The notes under the pieces: model-generated
Databases searched by the model: none
What the model was told of the DNA's origin: nothing
What the model saw: the letters and a program-made list of their open reading frames with translations, nothing else
From: an uncultured Gammaproteobacteria bacterium
GTDB lineage: Bacteria; Patescibacteriota; Patescibacteriia; UBA11705
Direction of reading: 5' to 3'
Length of the DNA: 63,549 bases
NCBI GenBank assembly: GCA_964413735.1
Contig: CAYPSS010000001.1
Location: 246,149-309,697, forward strand
Made by a program: the position numbers and the translations under genes
Shown here: positions 1,738 to 63,414 of the stretch, in pieces
How the letters are laid out: each line of letters begins with the position of its first letter
How positions within the stretch are numbered: the first letter of the stretch is position 1

Positions 1738-2331
1738 TTACTCGGTTAACCCGTCTAAATTTACATCGTAAAGAATTTGTTCTTGGACTAATCGGTAATT
1801 GACAATTTCTTCCGGTTTAAACCACAAATTAATTTCTCTTTCCGCTTCACTTACTTGATCGGAGCAATGGATTAAATTTCGAACGGCGCGTTCATCAAAT
1901 CCGGCTAATTGATACGAATCTAAGGTTAAATCACCGCGAATGGTTCCTACATCTGAAGTTAAAGGTTCAGTTCCACCAACAATTTTTTTCACAATTCCAA
2001 CCGCTTGATTGCCTTCAATCACCATGGCCAATACCGGGCCGGAAGTCATGAATTTCACTAATTGATTGATAATATCTTTGCCATATTCAAGGGCTGATTT
2101 TTCAATCGGTTGTCCGGCGGATTGACGATTTTCAATAATTTTTGCGCCTTTGCTTTCAAACCAAGTGTTATCTTTATTATAATGTTTCCAACAAAGATCT
2201 TCCGATGGAATAATGAATTTAAATCCCACAAATTTCAACCCTACTCTTTCAAAACGTTTGATAATTTCTCCAACCAGAGAGCGTTGAATGCCATCCGGTT
2301 TAATGGCCACAAAAGTTCTTTCTTTTTTCAT
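1738..2331 (-). CDS. ndk: Nucleoside diphosphate kinase
   Basis: RTFVAIKPDG, FMTSGPV, GTIRGD, RNLIHCSD motifs. Confidence 0.95.
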   Translation of the reverse strand: MKKERTFVAIKPDGIQRSLVGEIIKRFERVGLKFVGFKFIIPSEDLCWKHYNKDNTWFESKGAKIIENRQSAGQPIEKSALEYGKDIINQLVKFMTSGPVLAMVIEGNQAVGIVKKIVGGTEPLTSDVGTIRGDLTLDSYQLAGFDERAVRNLIHCSDQVSEAEREINLWFKPEEIVNYRLVQEQILYDVNLDGLTE

Positions 2332-2389: not shown

Positions 2390-3232
2390 TTAATTTACGG
2401 GTAAAAATATTTTTTCACTGTCGCTTTTCAGGGTGATTGTAGCGCTGTTTATGGTGTTAAAGATTTTTATATTATATCTTTCTAATCTTCTAACAGTAAT
2501 TAAATGCGGATGGTTAAAAGAATTATCCTGTCCGGCACTGATAATAGCATATTGCGGTTGAACTATTTTAATAAATTCTTCGCTGGTTGAACTTTTTGAT
2601 CCATGGTGTCCGATTTTGATCACATTTGATTGTAATTCGAAGTTTTGATTTAATAATTCCTCTTCTACCGGTGTTTCAGCATCGCCCATAAATAAAAATT
2701 TTGTATTCCCATAAGTCAATAAGTTTACAATTGACGTATTGTTTAATTCTTCTGCTTTTTTGAAACTGAAATCTTGTAGAGGATAAAGAAAATCCAATAA
2801 AATATTATTATCTAAAAGCAAATTAATTGGTTTAGTCACCAGGATGGTTTTTATTTGTTGATTTTCAACTTCTTTCAACCAAGCTAAATAATCGGGCGCG
2901 GTATGTAAAACTCCGGTATGATAAATTGTTTTTACATTATAACGACGCAAGACCTCGACTAAGCCAACTACATGATCAGCATGCGGATGGGTCAAGATCA
3001 TTATATCAATGTTATGATCCCAAAAAGGCATGACTTGGCCCAGCTCATTTAAGATTTTGTTGTTCGGCCCGCCATCAATTAAAATTTTGGTATTTTGCGG
3101 TGTGGTTATAAAAATGGCATCCCCTTGATCAACATCGAGAAAATGAATGGTCAAATTTTCATTGTCATAATTAACGGTGCAACCACAAAAAGTGAAACAA
3201 ATAACAATTAGTAAAAGTAATATTTTTTTCAT
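2390..3232 (-). CDS. ComEC/Rec2-type metallo-beta-lactamase-fold protein, probable lipoprotein
   Basis: FLDVDQGDA, IDGGP, THPHADH, FMGDAE, KIGHHGS motifs; N-terminal signal ending FCGC. Confidence 0.9.
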   Translation of the reverse strand: MKKILLLLIVICFTFCGCTVNYDNENLTIHFLDVDQGDAIFITTPQNTKILIDGGPNNKILNELGQVMPFWDHNIDIMILTHPHADHVVGLVEVLRRYNVKTIYHTGVLHTAPDYLAWLKEVENQQIKTILVTKPINLLLDNNILLDFLYPLQDFSFKKAEELNNTSIVNLLTYGNTKFLFMGDAETPVEEELLNQNFELQSNVIKIGHHGSKSSTSEEFIKIVQPQYAIISAGQDNSFNHPHLITVRRLERYNIKIFNTINSATITLKSDSEKIFLPVN

Positions 3233-4575
3233 AAATTAATTGAGGAAAATTCAAATTGAGCTAAAAAATTAACTATTGTAATTATATATTGTAATACCGT
3301 ATAAGTTAAATATCCAAAGGTTGTTCCTATGGGGATCCAAAACATGCCTAAAATTACTTGGATAAAGCCGAGGAGCATTGCCAAGGGTATGGCCGGTAAA
3401 ATTAGAATGTTAGTTATCGGGGCAATCAAAGAGATGCGCCCAAATTGATAAATTATCAATGGGGCGGTTAAAATTGTGGCCGATAGGGTGGAAACCAAGT
3501 TTTCTTGCAAAGAGAAAAATTTAGGGACAAATTCAAAGTATGGTTTAATTTTTTCACTTAAATAAATTAATCCTATGGTAGCCAAAAAAGACAGTTGAAA
3601 ACCAACATCGAATTTTAAAATTAGGGGATTGTGTAAAAGCATAACAAAAGCGGTTAAAGCTAAGACATTGTTTATTTTTGCCGGTCGCCCGATTTGTTTG
3701 GCCAATAAAACAATTATTCCCATAATCGCGGAACGAACTACCGCCGCACTCATGCCAACAAAAATCGTGAAAATGGTGATACCAAGCACCATGAATTTGA
3801 ACGCCTTTTTGCGATTAATATTAAATCCCAAACAAATATTCATAAACATGGTGGCAATAATGGTTATGTTATAACCGGAAATGGCAATAATATGAGTAAC
3901 GCCATTGCGATTGAAGCTTTCCATTAAATTATTGGGAATTCCTTTGCGTGCGCCAATTAACAAACCTGACAAAAAAGCGGCGTGTGGTTCGGTAATGGTT
4001 TTATTGATTGTTTGTTGGGTATGCTTTTTGAATTGCAGAATCCACTTCATAATAAGGTTGCCTTGATTGAGCTCTAAAACCTCAATTTTGGGAGAATAGC
4101 AAACGGAATAAACATTATAACGTGCCAAATATTGCCCATAATCAAAGTCATCAATTTTGTTTGGTGTTTTAAGAAAACAGGATATTTTTATTTTTGTTCC
4201 ATATTCATAACTTGGATAAAGCGGAGTTTTAACCAGTACTTTGCCTTGCCAAGGAGTTTGAGTGTTAATTGTTAATTTGGTATGATCTAGTCTTTCGTCA
4301 ATTTCAGTAATAATGGCGATAAATTCAGTTTTATTTTCATTGGCATAATAGATGTGGTTGGCAGGTAATGGTTCGTTGATGATTGCCAGTCGCCATAATC
4401 CGAAAAATAAAAAAAATATGATTAGTAAGATAATTTCTCGAGTGAGTAAATATAATGGAAAACATATGAAAATAATAATTAAGCATATTAATGGGTTTAA
4501 GAATAAAAAACCATTTAGAAAAACACCTAATATAAAAGCGGTTAAACAAAGAAATAGTTTTTTTGATTTTGGCAT
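3229..4575 (-). CDS. comEC: ComEC competence membrane channel (DUF4131 plus Competence domain)
   Basis: GVTHIIAISGYNI, AAVVRSAIM, DVGFQLSFLAT motifs; multi-TM; overlaps the MBL gene by 4 nt. Confidence 0.92.
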   Translation of the reverse strand: MPKSKKLFLCLTAFILGVFLNGFLFLNPLICLIIIFICFPLYLLTREIILLIIFFLFFGLWRLAIINEPLPANHIYYANENKTEFIAIITEIDERLDHTKLTINTQTPWQGKVLVKTPLYPSYEYGTKIKISCFLKTPNKIDDFDYGQYLARYNVYSVCYSPKIEVLELNQGNLIMKWILQFKKHTQQTINKTITEPHAAFLSGLLIGARKGIPNNLMESFNRNGVTHIIAISGYNITIIATMFMNICLGFNINRKKAFKFMVLGITIFTIFVGMSAAVVRSAIMGIIVLLAKQIGRPAKINNVLALTAFVMLLHNPLILKFDVGFQLSFLATIGLIYLSEKIKPYFEFVPKFFSLQENLVSTLSATILTAPLIIYQFGRISLIAPITNILILPAIPLAMLLGFIQVILGMFWIPIGTTFGYLTYTVLQYIITIVNFLAQFEFSSINL

Positions 4576-4726
4576 TTTAAATAAACTCCATTATAAATAC
4601 ATTTTAATAATAAAAAAATGGATATTCTATATTTTTGTTATCCACTTTTGAAAAATATTTACTTATTATTAAATTATTTGTAATTTATCACAAAAGAATT
4701 GTTGAGCAAATATAACATCATAATAT

Positions 4727-4843
4727 AAAAAATCGCCAGTCAATGGCGTTTTAATTGATACGAAGAATCAAAGTCGCGCTGTTTATCGGCCAATTAAGCA
4801 TGGGCGGACAAATTTGCGACTTGACCCTTCATATCATTGGAAA
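4727..4843 (-). ncRNA. Candidate stand-alone small RNA (about 113 nt, long rod-like hairpin)
   Basis: Consensus TTGACA-16-TATAAT promoter directly upstream, 79-nt irregular hairpin 4757-4835, terminator 4727-4752, no ORF. Confidence 0.5.
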
Positions 4844-4845
4844 CG

Positions 4846-4873
4846 ATTATAGCAAATAAAAAATATTTGTCAA
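4846..4873 (-). promoter_or_regulatory. sigma70 promoter, TTGACA-N16-TATAAT
   Basis: Plus strand tgtcaa 4868-4873 and attata 4846-4851. Confidence 0.75.
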
Positions 4874-4876
4874 GAG

Positions 4877-5884
4877 TCAAGATTTGAGATTTCTCATGAA
4901 TCGATAAATCCCATAAATAACCGGTGAATAAATCTTCTCATAAGTCCCCAAATACTCGGTAATTTCCGCGTTAGGGGAAAATCCCATTTTGAATTTGGTA
5001 AAGCCAAACCAGTTTTGTTCTCGGCCGGTAGCATCGGGTGGAGCCGCGCCCCAGAAGTCATAGTCCCAATAATCATTTTGTTTGGCGTCTTTGATGGCCG
5101 ACCATTGTAACAGATGAGGCGCCATTATAGCTCGAAATTCATAATCAGAGGCACCAAACAGGTAAGTGGCGGTATGATTCCAGAAGATCATAATATTGGC
5201 CGCAATATATTGTCCGTTATATTTTGCTAAATATAGATTAACAAAAGGTAGGTTTAGAAGTTCTTTGAAATATTTTTCTCCAAAAAGAGTTATTTGTTGG
5301 CGATCAGTAGTTTTTTTTAATAGCTCATTGAATTCTTTGAATTTCGTGTTATCAATTTCAATGACTACGCCTTTTTTTTCCGCTAAACGAATATTGTAAC
5401 GTGTTTTGGGATGCATTTGATTTAATAATTCTTCAGTTGATTTATGTAAATTCAAAATCAAAGTATGACGCGGTTGAATATCGCGAGCGGATTTCTCAAA
5501 ACCCAAGTAATTATATGTTTCCAGCATCTGAAAATTATTTGTTTGTGGGTCGCATTGAAAATAAATGGCTTTTTCTTGTTTTGCCAGTTTATTTATTTCT
5601 GACATTATTAATTCAAAAGTTTTTTTGATTGGAGCATTGTCAGATAATACCGGACCTTTGGGAGCGTAAAGAATTTTGAAATTACCTTTTATTTTTGATA
5701 CAAACAAAAAAACAACCGCTTGCCAGTGATTGTCATTTTCCACCACTAAACGATAAATTTTTTCTTTTTGCGTGGCCATGAAATCAGCCCAGTCCCAAGA
5801 TTGCAAAAATGTTCCGGTTTCATTTTTCTTGATAAATTTGTTCCAATTTGATTGATCCTGTGTGGTTGCTTGTCTAATCATCAT
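4877..5884 (-). CDS. FemABX-family peptidoglycan bridge aminoacyltransferase (lipid II:amino acid ligase)
   Basis: FLQSWDW, YAPKGPV, KTRYNIRLAEKKGV, TYLFGAS, YDFWG, FTKFKMGF motifs. Confidence 0.9.
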   Translation of the reverse strand: MMIRQATTQDQSNWNKFIKKNETGTFLQSWDWADFMATQKEKIYRLVVENDNHWQAVVFLFVSKIKGNFKILYAPKGPVLSDNAPIKKTFELIMSEINKLAKQEKAIYFQCDPQTNNFQMLETYNYLGFEKSARDIQPRHTLILNLHKSTEELLNQMHPKTRYNIRLAEKKGVVIEIDNTKFKEFNELLKKTTDRQQITLFGEKYFKELLNLPFVNLYLAKYNGQYIAANIMIFWNHTATYLFGASDYEFRAIMAPHLLQWSAIKDAKQNDYWDYDFWGAAPPDATGREQNWFGFTKFKMGFSPNAEITEYLGTYEKIYSPVIYGIYRFMRNLKS

Positions 5885-5887
5885 AAA

Positions 5888-6466
5888 TTAATGACTGAGA
5901 AATTTTAAGGCTTCACGAACGCGTTCTTCCAGTTTATTGATATCAGGAGAAACTTTTTTCAGGGCCTCACGCGCTTGGTTAGCCGGATAGCCCAAAGAGG
6001 TGAGTGCTTCCATGGCATCGCTATCAATGGTTAATTCATCTTTTGATTTTATATTAATACCCACCAAGCCCTCAAGTTTGTTTTTCAGTTCCAAAACAAT
6101 GCGATCGGCGGTTTTACCACCAATGCCGGAAACTTTTTTCAAAATTGACGAATCACCATGAATAATAGCAGACTTAATGTCATTACCGGAAGCTTCGGAG
6201 AAAATTGCTAGCGCGGTTTTCGGTCCTACACCGGAAACGGAAATTAATTTTTCAAAAAGTTGTAAATCCGCCAGATCAACAAAACCAAAAAGATCGCGTG
6301 CATCCTCTTTGATATTTTCAAAAGTGAAAAGTTCGATATTGTCATTTAATTGACTCTCATATAAAACTTTTTTGCTAACAAAAACTTTGTAACCCAAGTC
6401 AGCGTTTTTAATTATCACAGAAGATTCATTTTTGGCGATAATTTCGCCTTTAATATACGCAATCAT
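5888..6466 (-). CDS. ruvA: Holliday junction branch migration protein RuvA
   Basis: MIAYIKG, LFGF, LISVSGVGPKTAL, GIGGKTADRIVLELK, ALTSLGY. Confidence 0.96.
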   Translation of the reverse strand: MIAYIKGEIIAKNESSVIIKNADLGYKVFVSKKVLYESQLNDNIELFTFENIKEDARDLFGFVDLADLQLFEKLISVSGVGPKTALAIFSEASGNDIKSAIIHGDSSILKKVSGIGGKTADRIVLELKNKLEGLVGINIKSKDELTIDSDAMEALTSLGYPANQAREALKKVSPDINKLEERVREALKFLSH

Positions 6467-6505
6467 ATATTAATATTTTACTTGATAATGAAAAACAAAA
6501 CAACT

Positions 6506-7912: not shown

Positions 7913-10033
7913 ATGATTGATTATTCCAATCCGAATAATGAATATGTTTTGGTGACGCATAGTCAGGGTGATGTTGATTGTATTGTGGGGGTGTATCGCT
8001 TTCTTCACGCTGTTGGGATTTCGGTTTTGGATGCATTGCTTGGAAAGCGAGTGCGTTTTGAATTTGTTTATCCGGGTGACAAAATTGAAGATAATCGGAC
8101 CGATGAAGTGGTAATTCACATTGATACTGGTGGTAAGTTTGATCCGGAGAATGGTTTTTTTGATCATCATTTCGAAGGTATAATGCAATACAGTGCAACT
8201 CATTTAATTGATGAATATTTTCAAGGAGATAGCTTTATTGTTTTCCCAGATGATTTGTATGCTGTTATCCCAAACTCAAAGTATTTGATGGAATGGATTG
8301 AAAGAGATACGGAACAAGTTTTGGATTTTTATTTGATGCAGGATAAAAATGTGCATGATGCTGTTAAAAAAAACCCAATCCTTCGTAAGTGGTTGATCTC
8401 TACAATTCGTTCTAATTTTATAGAGAAATTCCTGTGTAAATTGAATTCAAGTAAGGCAGAATGGTTGGAGGATTTGACAGTCTCTATTACTGTAAAATCA
8501 GAGACTCTCCCGAGTTTTGTTTTGAATGAAATTCAATCAATTGTTGAGTATAGATGTGAGTTAATGAAATCACAGGCTCGTTCAATGTTTTTGCATCAAT
8601 CCCTTGAAGGAAAAAAATCAACAAATCCTGAATGGCTGAATGATTTGGTGGAATATGCGAATCTGGTTGATTCGCCGGCTACTTATCCCAAGTTGTCCGA
8701 AGAAAGCTATGCGTTTATTCGGGAAACCAATGAACGCGTGGTTGAGGAAATTGGGGATCTTGGTCGTTTTTCACCTCAGTATGCCGGTCCGACGGATTTC
8801 GCGAAGTTGGTGCGCCAATTTCCGGGAAATATGTCGGATGTGGATCGGATGAAGCTGGGACTCGTGACTTTGGAATCTTGTTTGACGATGATGAGAAATA
8901 ATGAAGAAAATGCGGAAGAGGATGATGCTCTGGCCGAAGTGAAGATGTTGTTGGATTCAAAGGAAAAAGAAACGCGAATTCCGGAACAGACTTTCACGGC
9001 TGATAGTGAATTTTTCGGCGAGCTGGGTCGGATGCAAAATCGACTCTTGTTCGTCCTGCCTTATTCACCCATGGCCGTGGAAATTCTGGCGATTAAGCTG
9101 TTGCTTCACATTCGTAGAATTCCGATTAATTCAAATAATGTGGAATTTGTGTTTGTGGATGAGAAGGAACAATTTTTCAGTGATAAATATGGTGATGATT
9201 GGGCAGTAATTCATTTGAATTGCGGTCGGGTTTGGAATCCGAAGTCGTTGCACTTGGATACCAATGCGGAGAATTGTCCGTTTGATAATATCGTTCAGGC
9301 GATTTACGCGTTGGCTTTCCACAATGACAATCGGACGCCGAATTATATTCGTAATTTGGTGACCTACATGAATTTCTATCAATCTGATTTGAGTGAGATG
9401 GTCATTTGTGAGGCCGATTGGGACAAGTTGAATGCCTATCATCGCGAACTGGAAGAAAAGGTTCCGCGACCGGTGCGATTCAATTTAAACTTTCGGGCGC
9501 CGGTGCATTTGCCCAGAGTAATTGATGATTTGCCTTCGTATTTGAGCGATCAGCAAATGATGCAGATTGGCTTACAGTTGTTTGATGGATTTTTTGAAGA
9601 AATGAATACGCGGACTTCGGTGTTTAACCATTTGGAGCTCAGTCAGCGGGAAACCGGCAACGGTTTGACCATGGCTTGCATTCCTCCTAATGGTTTTAAC
9701 ACCAAGACTTTGCGGGGGATTTTGCGGAAGAAGTTCAGGCAAGAGCTTGATGTGTATGTGGCGGAGTTTGAAACGGATGAAACCGATAATGATCGGAATG
9801 CCCGTTTCTGCGTCACGACGGTCATCAATTCGGCCGAGGTGGCAGGTATGGATGAGCTGATGGAACGCTTGTACCGGCTCGATCCGGAACTGCGTCGTCC
9901 GTCGGGTGGTATGCAGGGAGACATTTACCTGCATCACAGCGCATTCGTGCTGTACATCAATGGCCGAACCAGCCTGAAGCTGGCGCAGGTGTGGGAGACT
10001 ACTCTCAAGACTTTGCGTCGGGTGACTCAATAG
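7913..10033 (+). CDS. 706-aa protein with a MYG1/DHH-like phosphoesterase domain and a degenerate second copy
   Basis: VTHSQGDVD and HIDTGGKFDPENGFFDHH resemble MYG1-type motifs; internal repeat VIHLNCGRVWNPKSLHLDTN. Confidence 0.55.
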   Translation: MIDYSNPNNEYVLVTHSQGDVDCIVGVYRFLHAVGISVLDALLGKRVRFEFVYPGDKIEDNRTDEVVIHIDTGGKFDPENGFFDHHFEGIMQYSATHLIDEYFQGDSFIVFPDDLYAVIPNSKYLMEWIERDTEQVLDFYLMQDKNVHDAVKKNPILRKWLISTIRSNFIEKFLCKLNSSKAEWLEDLTVSITVKSETLPSFVLNEIQSIVEYRCELMKSQARSMFLHQSLEGKKSTNPEWLNDLVEYANLVDSPATYPKLSEESYAFIRETNERVVEEIGDLGRFSPQYAGPTDFAKLVRQFPGNMSDVDRMKLGLVTLESCLTMMRNNEENAEEDDALAEVKMLLDSKEKETRIPEQTFTADSEFFGELGRMQNRLLFVLPYSPMAVEILAIKLLLHIRRIPINSNNVEFVFVDEKEQFFSDKYGDDWAVIHLNCGRVWNPKSLHLDTNAENCPFDNIVQAIYALAFHNDNRTPNYIRNLVTYMNFYQSDLSEMVICEADWDKLNAYHRELEEKVPRPVRFNLNFRAPVHLPRVIDDLPSYLSDQQMMQIGLQLFDGFFEEMNTRTSVFNHLELSQRETGNGLTMACIPPNGFNTKTLRGILRKKFRQELDVYVAEFETDETDNDRNARFCVTTVINSAEVAGMDELMERLYRLDPELRRPSGGMQGDIYLHHSAFVLYINGRTSLKLAQVWETTLKTLRRVTQ

Positions 10034-10038
10034 ATTTT

Positions 10039-10061
10039 AACGAAGCTCAATGAGCTTCGTT
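10039..10061 (+). terminator. Intrinsic terminator hairpin
   Basis: aacgaagctc-aat-gagcttcgtt plus T-tract just after the TAG. Confidence 0.8.
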
Positions 10062-23804: not shown

Positions 23805-24023
23805 ATGGAATTATTTATCGCCTTTCTTGTGGTTGTGATGTATGTTGTTGTTGGGTTTATTGTTGCTTTGTTACTCAAGGAATCAATTAATGAAGCTAAA
23901 CAATTGGACATTCCATTGATTAAGTCGCCTTTATTTTGTATTACTTCCATTGTTGCCTTGATTCTGATTGTTTTAGTGGTTAAATTTATCTATGCTTCTT
24001 TTGTGTACTTTTCTGGTGGTTAG
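23805..24023 (+). CDS. Small 2-TM protein (KSPLF family)
   Basis: AGGAG RBS; two hydrophobic helices around LIKSPLF. Confidence 0.75.
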   Translation: MELFIAFLVVVMYVVVGFIVALLLKESINEAKQLDIPLIKSPLFCITSIVALILIVLVVKFIYASFVYFSGG

Positions 24024-24044
24024 CTATAACCGGGGAGGAGAGAA

Positions 24045-24278
24045 ATGGATACATTTATCAATTGGCTTTTTATTGTTCTTATGTTGCTTGTTTCTTTATT
24101 TATTGTTTATTTCATGATTAGGACTATCAGTTTTATGATTAAACAAGAGAAAAAAACAACAACCTCAATTTTGAAATCCCCGTTATTTTGGTTGGGTATG
24201 TTTATTTGCACACTATCGGCAATCGCTGTGCTTAAGGGTCTAGGTAGTTTATTAGCATCTTACTTGAATATCGGGTAA
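24045..24278 (+). CDS. Small 2-TM protein (KSPLF family)
   Basis: GGAGG RBS; ILKSPLF motif. Confidence 0.75.
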   Translation: MDTFINWLFIVLMLLVSLFIVYFMIRTISFMIKQEKKTTTSILKSPLFWLGMFICTLSAIAVLKGLGSLLASYLNIG

Positions 24279-24300
24279 TCCTTTAACCGGAGAAAGGAAG

Positions 24301-24516
24301 ATGTTGAAAACCATTTTGTTTTTGTTTGCATTGACTGTTGTAGGTGGAATGTTGTTTATGGTTTTTAACAGTATTCGTCAAGATTCAAAAAGTGGGGTTG
24401 TGTATATTTTCAAAAATCCGAATTTTTATTTGCTGGTCATTATCTTTTTATTTTGGCTTTATGGGGTATTTACTGTAATTCAAGATTTGGTAGCGTATTT
24501 TTTAAGGGTAAGTTAA
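24301..24516 (+). CDS. Small 2-TM protein (KSPLF family)
   Basis: RBS; IFKNPNF motif; terminator 24521-24541. Confidence 0.75.
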   Translation: MLKTILFLFALTVVGGMLFMVFNSIRQDSKSGVVYIFKNPNFYLLVIIFLFWLYGVFTVIQDLVAYFLRVS

Positions 24517-24613
24517 TTTGAAGTCTGATAACATCAGACTTTTTTTATTTTGGCTTAATTGACAATTTTTATGATTATGGTAAATTAACGGGCGGTCGTA
24601 TGGAGAGTCAGCC

Positions 24614-24874
24614 ATGAGCCAAGAATTTTGGTTTTGGTTTATCACAGTATTTCAGCTAATATCTTTTGTTCTTTTAATTTCATTGATTATCATTCAAAAG
24701 CTTTTAATTGCAGAGATGGGAAAGCCGGATCAAAATTCATTGAACAGAGTGAAAAAATTGAATAAATGGTTAGGCGTTATTCTGATTTTATTTTCGATAT
24801 TTTGGCTTATTAATCTTTGTATCTTTGCTCGCTACTATTTTGTTGGAATAACGATTTTTTCTCCCCCAACATAA
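24614..24874 (+). CDS. Small 2-TM protein
   Basis: Own TTGACA promoter, GGAG RBS, two TM segments. Confidence 0.7.
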   Translation: MSQEFWFWFITVFQLISFVLLISLIIIQKLLIAEMGKPDQNSLNRVKKLNKWLGVILILFSIFWLINLCIFARYYFVGITIFSPPT

Positions 24875-24884
24875 GGAGGAGTCA

Positions 24885-25130
24885 ATGGAGCCGTGTACGC
24901 TTTGTTTGGTTGGGAAAATTTTACTGACCTGCGGGATGATGATTTTGTTCGGTCTTTTAATTGTTCATTACATTAAGTTATTTAAAAACATGTTGGCGGC
25001 CATTAAAGGTCGCCATGAAGATTATCCGGCTTTGGTGCAAAAAGTGATTAATCGAAGCGCTATTTTGGCAGTTATTTTGGCGGTGATTTCTTGGGTTTTG
25101 AATATTGTTCTTTCTTCTGGAGGTGGCTGA
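24885..25130 (+). CDS. Small 2-TM protein
   Basis: AGGAGG RBS; N-terminal CxxC (MEPCTLC). Confidence 0.7.
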   Translation: MEPCTLCLVGKILLTCGMMILFGLLIVHYIKLFKNMLAAIKGRHEDYPALVQKVINRSAILAVILAVISWVLNIVLSSGGG

Positions 25131-25384
25131 TGGAAGCGATTTTTGGCAATATCTTATATCAACAGATTATTTTCTGTGCGATTGCTGTTCTAGCTTTGGT
25201 AAGCTTGGGGTTAGTGTTGAGGGTGTATGTTAAATTGTGTAAGAGGATTTGCTTGATTACCAAACCAGGTACCAAAAATCGTAGAAAGCATGTAATTAAT
25301 TTAGCAGTGATTGGATTGTTGATTTTTGGGATGACTGTTTTTGCTGGTTATATAATTGTTGTGGAGTTTATAAAATTGTTTTGA
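25130..25384 (+). CDS. Small 2-TM protein
   Basis: TGATG overlap with the upstream gene and GGAGG; terminator 25389-25409. Confidence 0.7.
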   Translation: MEAIFGNILYQQIIFCAIAVLALVSLGLVLRVYVKLCKRICLITKPGTKNRRKHVINLAVIGLLIFGMTVFAGYIIVVEFIKLF

Positions 25385-25548
25385 TTAGTGGACTGATAAT
25401 ATCAGTCCATTTTTATTTTGCGTGTTTGTTTTTGTCGGGTATTTTTTAAATTTTATAGGATTTTGATTTTTAAAGGCTGATAACAGTAAACTTGACAATC
25501 TCAATATTTATGATATACTGTTCATGCCTTACGGGAATGGAGGCCTCT

Positions 25549-25824
25549 ATGACTGTGAATATTGGGAATCATTTTTTATTTGTATTTGTTGTTGTAAATT
25601 TGCAGATTTTGATTCTTTTGGTGTTTGGGATGACCCTGAAAAAATTCTTTCCTGTTATTAGAAAAGCTTGGAGTTCGTTATCTTTGAAGACATTGGATGT
25701 AAAGAAAATTGTTTTGTTGATTACGCTGGTTTTGCTGGCTTTGGATATGGGGGTAATCATTGGGATTTATCTTTTTGATATTGAATATCAACTTGCATCG
25801 AGAATTATCTCAAAACTGTTTTAA
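25549..25824 (+). CDS. Small 2-TM protein
   Basis: TTGACA promoter at 25492, GGAGG before ATG 25549; terminator 25831-25851. Confidence 0.7.
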   Translation: MTVNIGNHFLFVFVVVNLQILILLVFGMTLKKFFPVIRKAWSSLSLKTLDVKKIVLLITLVLLALDMGVIIGIYLFDIEYQLASRIISKLF

Positions 25825-63337: not shown

Positions 63338-63414
63338 TGGTGGGCGACAAAAGAGTCGAACTTTTGACCTCATCGACGTCAACGATGCGCTCTAACCAAC
63401 TGAGCTAGCCGCCC
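63338..63414 (-). tRNA. tRNA-Val(GAC)
   Basis: Reverse complement GGGCGGCTAGCTCAGTTGGTTAGAGCGCATCGTTGACGTCGATGAGGTCAAAAGTTCGACTCTTTTGTCGCCCACCA. Confidence 0.96.

Follow-up and report, generated by a model that had tools for sequence, protein, structure and literature searches.

The 147 bp at positions 4873-4727, which lie on the minus strand between femX and comEC, are best read as a stand-alone, lineage-specific small RNA gene with a product of ~110 nt and with a hairpin and terminator that serve as the end of the femX operon as well; we give this reading a probability of about one half. Positions are those of the window, the whole 63,549-nt stretch of DNA analyzed. Along the minus strand the femX stop codon (4879-4877) is followed by a promoter, an 81-nt rod-shaped hairpin, a linker and an intrinsic terminator, an arrangement that points to transcription into an RNA that may be stable and may have a function. 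The module is present once, occurs in at least two diverged lineages and is independent of the gene that happens to lie downstream.

Results

Gene context and promoter

The sequence features that an earlier note had read from this DNA (a consensus promoter, a long hairpin with several G-U pairs and a terminator) are all present in the window on the minus strand where it had placed them, and its naming of the flanking genes is confirmed by Pfam. femX (4877-5884, minus strand) encodes a FemAB-family peptidoglycan bridge transferase and comEC (3229-4575, minus strand) a protein with DUF4131 and Competence domains. Pfam also identifies RuvA and a U32 peptidase upstream of femX and a separate metallo-β-lactamase-domain ORF downstream of comEC. 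The closest named relatives of FemX belong to Candidatus Falkowbacteria and other Patescibacteria, and metagenomes from anaerobic digesters, sludge, wastewater and landfill contain the DNA of the window.

ComEC itself is split in the window, its channel part (DUF4131 and Competence, 3229-4575) and its metallo-β-lactamase part (2390-3232) forming separate minus-strand ORFs that overlap by 4 nt. In two related loci (L048 and L049) other genes separate the two parts, and in both of these loci, as in the window (1738-2331), NDK lies just downstream of the metallo-β-lactamase gene.

The promoter matches the σ70 consensus at 12 of 12 positions and has an extended −10 element. Its −35 hexamer, TTGACA (4868-4873, minus strand), is separated from the femX stop codon by 3 nt, and a 16-nt spacer connects it to the extended −10, TGcTATAAT (4846-4854, minus strand). 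When both strands of the 63.5-kb window were scanned this proved to be the sole 12/12 site; an estimate from base composition puts the chance occurrence of a 12/12 promoter with TG at ~0.14 per whole window. The promoter of tRNA-Pro, an 11/12 site, is alike in layout (TTGAAA-16-TGnTATAAT). From the promoter geometry, transcription is predicted to start at the A residues 8-9 nt past the −10 (4837-4838, minus strand), which leaves 1-2 unpaired nucleotides ahead of the rod.

The promoter elements change little among the relatives that carry the module. The −35 is identical in the related loci L001 and L009 and unchanged in the allele of sequencing run X20, and the −10 of the divergent alleles is TATACT, the result of a single change at 4847. 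In the divergent lineage the −35, spacer, TG and −10 together carry 1 change in 28 nt versus ~16% in the adjoining 3' end of femX (p ~0.04, an estimate).

Predicted fold and terminator

In the predicted fold the 81-nt rod occupies 4756-4836 on the minus strand, with U4836-A4756 as its closing pair. From the base, a 16-bp helix is followed by the bulged U4772, by 5 bp and by a 3x4 internal loop; beyond this loop come 6 bp, a C4806.C4788 mismatch and 3 bp capped by an 11-nt loop. AAA/CAGC (A4815-A4813 / C4781-C4778) is the only internal loop in the fold. The apical loop (4792-4802, minus strand), which reads CAUGCUUAAUU and in which A4795 is replaced by U in divergent alleles, is the largest single-stranded segment; its complement has no above-chance match within the window. 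A 7-nt A/U-rich single-stranded linker, AUUAAAA (4749-4755, minus strand), joins the rod to the terminator. Loop and linker make up the free segments, and more than 70% of the nucleotides of the predicted transcript are in helix.

The fold is unusually stable for its composition. The 114-nt transcript has a minimum free energy of −44.9 kcal/mol (z = −6.4), and none of 200 shuffled sequences folds as well. The rod alone reaches −37.2 kcal/mol on the minus strand versus −28.1 kcal/mol on the opposite strand; the advantage of ~9 kcal/mol arises because all four wobble positions of the rod are G.U pairs on the minus strand, with no A.C pair among them.

The terminator, T1 (4727-4748, minus strand), has the stem-loop CGCCA-UUGAC-UGGCG (4748-4734) followed by A and six U residues (4733-4727), placing the predicted 3' end of the RNA at ~4728. 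Its stem of 5 bp compares with 6-10 bp in the other plausible gene-end terminators of the window, and it is weakened further in L001 by a change of G4734 to A. Since T1 is weak, with only a 5-bp stem, some read-through into comEC is likely.

Relation of the module to comEC

This expected read-through bears on the rival reading that survives best, in which the promoter drives comEC and the metallo-β-lactamase-domain gene, the rod blocks 5'-end-dependent decay of the message and T1 acts with a second hairpin as a leaky attenuator. A gap of 37 nt divides the second hairpin (GUGGAUA-N14-UAUCCAU then U7, 4612-4646, minus strand) from the start of comEC, and a weak promoter-like sequence, TTCAAA-17-TAGAAT, at 4652-4624 overlaps the hairpin. 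Several features fit such a leader. T1 falls in the weakest terminator class of the window, is weaker still in L001 and is followed by a gene of the same orientation; between T1 and comEC the consensus scan finds promoter-like sites that reach only 9/12. The rod, beginning 1-2 nt from the predicted start, would also have the geometry of known 5' stabilizers, which include 5'-terminal stem-loops such as that of ompA.

The main argument against this reading comes from a strain variant. In L009 and in contigs of at least six runs (X4, X5, X7, X9, X12 and X13) the sequence matches the window across femX and all of the RNA unit, and the match breaks off at 4726/4727, where the T1 U-run has its final base. 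Past this junction the L009-type contigs continue with AATTGAAACAAAACACTATTTTTGCTACAAT, which reads TTGAAA-17-TGcTACAAT and leads into a different membrane-protein ORF, so that a good new promoter lies within 5 nt of the unit. The ORF in the variant segment, which was compared at L009 2200-2467, reads MKLFSFNKTQIYF..., and a search with its 76-aa N-terminus found no match in Pfam or the databases. The unit is accordingly found ahead of two different genes, comEC in strains of the window type and the membrane-protein ORF in those of the L009 type. Because homology in the variant strains stops at the last T of the terminator, the unit is a self-contained, discrete module that travels with femX and not with comEC; and because the L009-type strains carry a different promoter and gene after it, a role as comEC leader is disfavored.

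The sequence on the other side of the junction agrees. The comEC-proximal spacer is ancestral and also found in L002, which lacks the unit: a 25-nt patch at 4660-4636, in the stretch of spacer that holds the second hairpin too, matches L002 3563-3587 at 21 of 25 positions, and the promoter-rod-terminator unit has no counterpart in the L002 spacer. Moreover the rod, at 81 nt, far exceeds the size that a stabilizer needs, inspection of the predicted fold reveals no alternative antiterminator pairing, and there is no match to a riboswitch or leader family. A riboswitch or other cis-acting leader of comEC was rejected, given the different gene and promoter after the unit in L009-type strains and the missing riboswitch match, and we regard the broader reading as leader or 5' stabilizer as unlikely. 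The reading as a stand-alone unit, which the earlier note had proposed, fits: the unit has its own consensus promoter and its own terminator, contains no conserved ORF and is bounded by a break in homology at the terminator's last T.

Distribution among relatives

The unit was found only in close relatives whose FemX is at least 82% identical. It is 100% identical over 153 nt in L009 (FemX 96%) and 91% identical in L001 (FemX 82%), and a second divergent allele lies on a contig of run X20. After femX it is absent from L002, L003 and L049 (FemX 71%), from L004 and L005 (63%) and from L006 and L007 (61%). Approached from the other gene, the identity of ComEC relatives falls from 99% straight to 57% or less, and the unit is absent in the two examined ComEC relatives at that level. 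The lineage is sparsely sampled.

Wider searches gave no further homologue. FemX and a 25-mer had no match in genome contigs, a 20-mer had a single chance match in metagenome contigs, in an unrelated high-GC coding region (L008), and viral contigs gave only chance matches of 16-17 nt, on which a phage origin was rejected. A covariance model built from four alleles (R1) was searched against the window and 38 kb of related loci, and neither it nor blastn found another copy. The unit is single-copy, with one matching contig in metagenome X1. From these searches the host range of the candidate RNA appears restricted to a narrow Falkowbacteria-like CPR lineage. Long-term selection on the unit is unproven, as the genome, metagenome and viral collections hold no homologue beyond the close relatives.

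The site after femX is occupied differently elsewhere. In L002, L003 and L049 femX and comEC are separated by a terminator and a Y1_Tnp gene, and in L002 and L004 a terminator hairpin directly follows femX. The Y1_Tnp gene (IS200-like, HUH tyrosine transposase fold; L002 3534-4133 and L049 1918-2421) abuts comEC as if it were a member of the same operon. In L006, a GC-rich element of ~130 nt follows femX (~2510-2640) in an otherwise AT-rich genome; it has a minimum free energy of −60 kcal/mol (z −4.3), no Rfam match and no sequence relation to the rod.

Allele comparison and the mosaic in L001

The alleles of the divergent relatives provide a view of how the rod changes. Relative to the window, pairing is kept by the stem changes A>G at 4834, G>A at 4825, A>G at 4822, A>G at 4821 and G>A at 4809 and broken by U>C at 4819 and A>U at 4783. 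L001 has two pair-breaking changes, and the allele in runs X8, X11 and X20 has one, A4822U, which the neighboring bulge absorbs in the fold; in the X20 allele on the contig, all four stem changes keep pairing. Across the four alleles 97% of the cells are paired and five pairs toggle between A-U and G-U, each by a one-sided change, with no double change. When changes with the same numbers of transitions and transversions were placed at random, the p values for the preservation of pairing were 0.08 (X20 allele) and 0.38 (L001). The earlier note had taken the G-U wobbles as a sign of selection at the RNA level. The toggles between A-U and G-U go in that direction; two-sided changes are missing among the four alleles, and neither p value is significant. 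Since roughly every second transition on the purine-rich 5' arm would leave pairing intact in any case, and the simulations are not significant, the signal of structural conservation is a weak one and only suggestive.

The comparison with L001 is complicated by a mosaic. From comEC up to ~4783 the window and L001 are 99-100% identical, across the 5' half of the RNA, femX and ruvA (window 4783-6500) they are 63-86% identical, and in most of the U32 peptidase gene identity returns to 92-99%, apart from one 100-nt bin at 83%. The breakpoint, at ~4783-4795, lies inside the RNA gene and reflects either recombination or the joining of two sequences by the assembler in a stretch that they share. The invariant 3' arm was for this reason ruled out as a sign of constraint. 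By its identity profile the ruvA-femX block looks like an imported cell-wall allele or part of a strain-chimeric contig. The mosaic nonetheless shows that a lineage ~20% diverged in ruvA-femX also carries the RNA gene after femX.

These comparisons bear most directly on a second rival, that the element has no RNA function of its own: it would chiefly form the 3' end of the femX operon and terminate it, or be the scar of a past insertion or rearrangement at a variable junction, with a promoter match that is fortuitous or recent. In L002 and L004 femX is directly followed by a terminator hairpin, and at this place the window has only the rod and T1. The junction is prone to rearrangement, to judge from Y1_Tnp in L002 and L049, the variant at 4726/4727 and the breakpoint within the rod, and the element is confined to its lineage and without covariation. 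Against this stand the promoter, expected at ~0.14 per window by chance, correctly placed and oriented and retained by the divergent lineage, and the wobble pairs, every one of which favors the promoter strand. The element also has no similarity to Y1_Tnp or its flanks, and as a single copy it is neither a MITE nor a REP. We consider this rival doubtful, and rank it after the comEC leader.

Known RNA families, ORFs and mobile elements

Rfam 15 covariance models were run at gathering thresholds on the window and, with the cutoff relaxed to E≤10, on 351 nt and 93 nt around the module. The gathering-threshold scan of the window returned two tRNAs only. At E≤10 neither stretch matched an SRP, 6S or riboswitch family, and chance-level matches to snoRNA, miRNA and viral UTR models were all that appeared. 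The earlier note had suggested such a comparison with 6S and SRP, and no family was matched even at this permissive setting. Its remark that the RNA lacks the SRP signature is borne out by the missing SRP model match at E≤10 and by the missing diagnostic loops. Its suggestion of a minimal 6S-like RNA fails, with no 6S model match at E≤10 over the 93-351 nt and no large central bubble in the rod.

The note had also described the unit as free of ORFs, which holds in so far as no ORF is conserved; a 12-codon AUG ORF does lie inside the rod. This ORF (MKGQVANLSAHA*) has no Shine-Dalgarno sequence, and a small peptide gene was rejected because the ORF loses its stop codon in two divergent alleles and its residues change by nonsynonymous substitution. 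On the plus strand a 34-codon ORF with a TTG start (LIRRIKVALFIGQLSMGGQICDLTLHIIGNDYSK) likewise has no Shine-Dalgarno sequence and is not membrane-like; a type I toxin-antitoxin pair was dismissed, as this ORF has no translation signals and does not resemble a toxin. A MITE or REP element was set aside on the single-copy status of the unit, and a Y1_Tnp relic or IS200-IS605 end was rejected for want of any tblastn or blastn similarity to the Y1_Tnp gene or its flanks in L002.

Read coverage in RNA-labeled runs

The three metatranscriptomes X25-27, the only genuine ones linked to a study whose samples contain the organism, include no sequence from it. Run X20, labeled 'METAGENOMIC RNA-Seq', covers the coding regions thinly, fragmentarily and with a uniformity like that of DNA; no reads fall on tRNA-Pro, and the RNA unit shows no enrichment.

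Discussion

A model for the candidate RNA

In the reading that we prefer, that of a stand-alone small RNA gene, RNA polymerase with the housekeeping sigma factor would start at A4838 or A4837 from the consensus extended −10 promoter. The transcript would fold at once into the 81-nt rod, nearly flush with its 5' end, and would end at the short intrinsic terminator. Rod and T1 may at the same time serve as the terminator of the upstream U32-ruvA-femX operon, which otherwise has none. The product would most likely be an abundant, stable hairpin that binds a protein; pairing of the apical loop with a target is the less likely mode of action. Judged from the predicted fold, a protein-binding stable hairpin is most likely, ahead of a classical base-pairing small RNA, because more than 70% of the nucleotides would be locked in helix.

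Comparison with known RNAs

The nearest likeness in gene organization is to stand-alone small RNA genes, including those of the CopA/RNA I type. Like these, the module has its own σ70 promoter, a product predicted at ~100 nt and an intrinsic terminator, lacks a conserved ORF and is phylogenetically narrow in range, and its exposed apical loop would allow a kissing interaction to begin. It differs in that the loop has no above-chance target in the window, there is no antisense partner gene and the stem is unusually long and regular. Compared with 5' stabilizers and leader attenuators, with which it has in common the hairpin 1-2 nt from the predicted 5' end and the weak terminator upstream of a same-strand gene, the rod is much longer and offers no alternative pairing, and the unit precedes two genes, one of which has its own promoter.

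In overall shape the rod recalls the SRP RNA (4.5S, RF00169), which binds the M domain of Ffh and is universal, with one copy per genome. Both form a single hairpin of ~80-115 nt with paired ends, a small internal loop and a one-nucleotide bulge on the 3' side, and SRP RNA is expressed as a stable RNA, as the rod may be. Helix 8 of 4.5S RNA has a GNRA-type tetraloop, a conserved symmetric loop and a 4-nt/1-nt asymmetric loop. The rod differs on each count: it has no RF00169 match, its 11-nt loop is not GNRA, AAA/CAGC is not the conserved symmetric loop, and in place of a 4-nt 5' asymmetric loop there is a single bulged U; and it is lineage-restricted, not universal. 6S RNA (ssrS, RF00013) is similarly a largely double-stranded non-coding RNA with a housekeeping promoter, and is abundant. 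The rod is half its length (6S being ~150-200 nt) and has no model match, and its largest internal loop, 3x4, is no equivalent of the central bubble by which 6S mimics an open promoter.

We rate two further readings as highly improbable. One is an abundant, essential, lineage-specific RNA of a ribonucleoprotein, either a non-canonical replacement of SRP RNA or an RNA partner of the femX pathway; the substrates of FemX-type transferases are the acceptor helices of aminoacyl-tRNAs. The other, which ranks last, is a highly divergent SRP (4.5S) RNA or a miniature 6S RNA: the rod has the shape and size of 4.5S RNA (a hairpin of 80-110 nt) and a strong promoter of the stable-RNA type, the 3' side of its internal loop, AAACAGC, faintly resembles the AAGCAGC in the E. 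coli 4.5S sequence (a lead only), and no canonical SRP or 6S RNA lies within the 63.5-kb window, but no SRP or 6S model matches even at E≤10 (93 and 351 nt), the 11-nt apex is not GNRA, the 4-nt/1-nt asymmetric loop and the large 6S bubble are missing, the unit is absent at the femX site in relatives of 71% FemX identity or less (unlike a universal RNA, although it could lie elsewhere in their genomes), and the window is a small part of the genome, so that the true ffs may lie elsewhere.

Significance

CPR bacteria are uncultivated and have reduced genomes, and many depend on other cells. The literature searched describes no small RNA, regulatory or structural, from CPR/Patescibacteria, and it is mainly for this reason that the candidate is of interest. 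It is otherwise an orphan of a familiar kind of gene, and its immediate impact is modest. As a candidate hairpin RNA between a cell-wall gene, femX, and the gene for the DNA-uptake channel, comEC, it is a concrete target for digester metatranscriptomes; if confirmed, it would mean that lineage-specific small RNAs arise even in minimal CPR genomes.

Additional features of the window

Three other regions of the window deserve mention. On the plus strand at 23805-25824 lies a tandem array of ~7 small predicted membrane proteins (71-110 aa), alike in length and hydrophobic pattern, in a 2-kb stretch that contains no large ORFs; an 11/12 promoter with TG, located at 25492, stands ahead of the last gene of the array. 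Also on the plus strand, a 706-aa ORF (7913-10033) has no Pfam domain and is followed by a strong 10-bp terminator at 10039-10061. Finally, ARAGORN calls a third tRNA, Val-GAC, at 63338-63414 on the minus strand, in addition to the two tRNAs of the Rfam gathering-threshold scan, from which it is absent.
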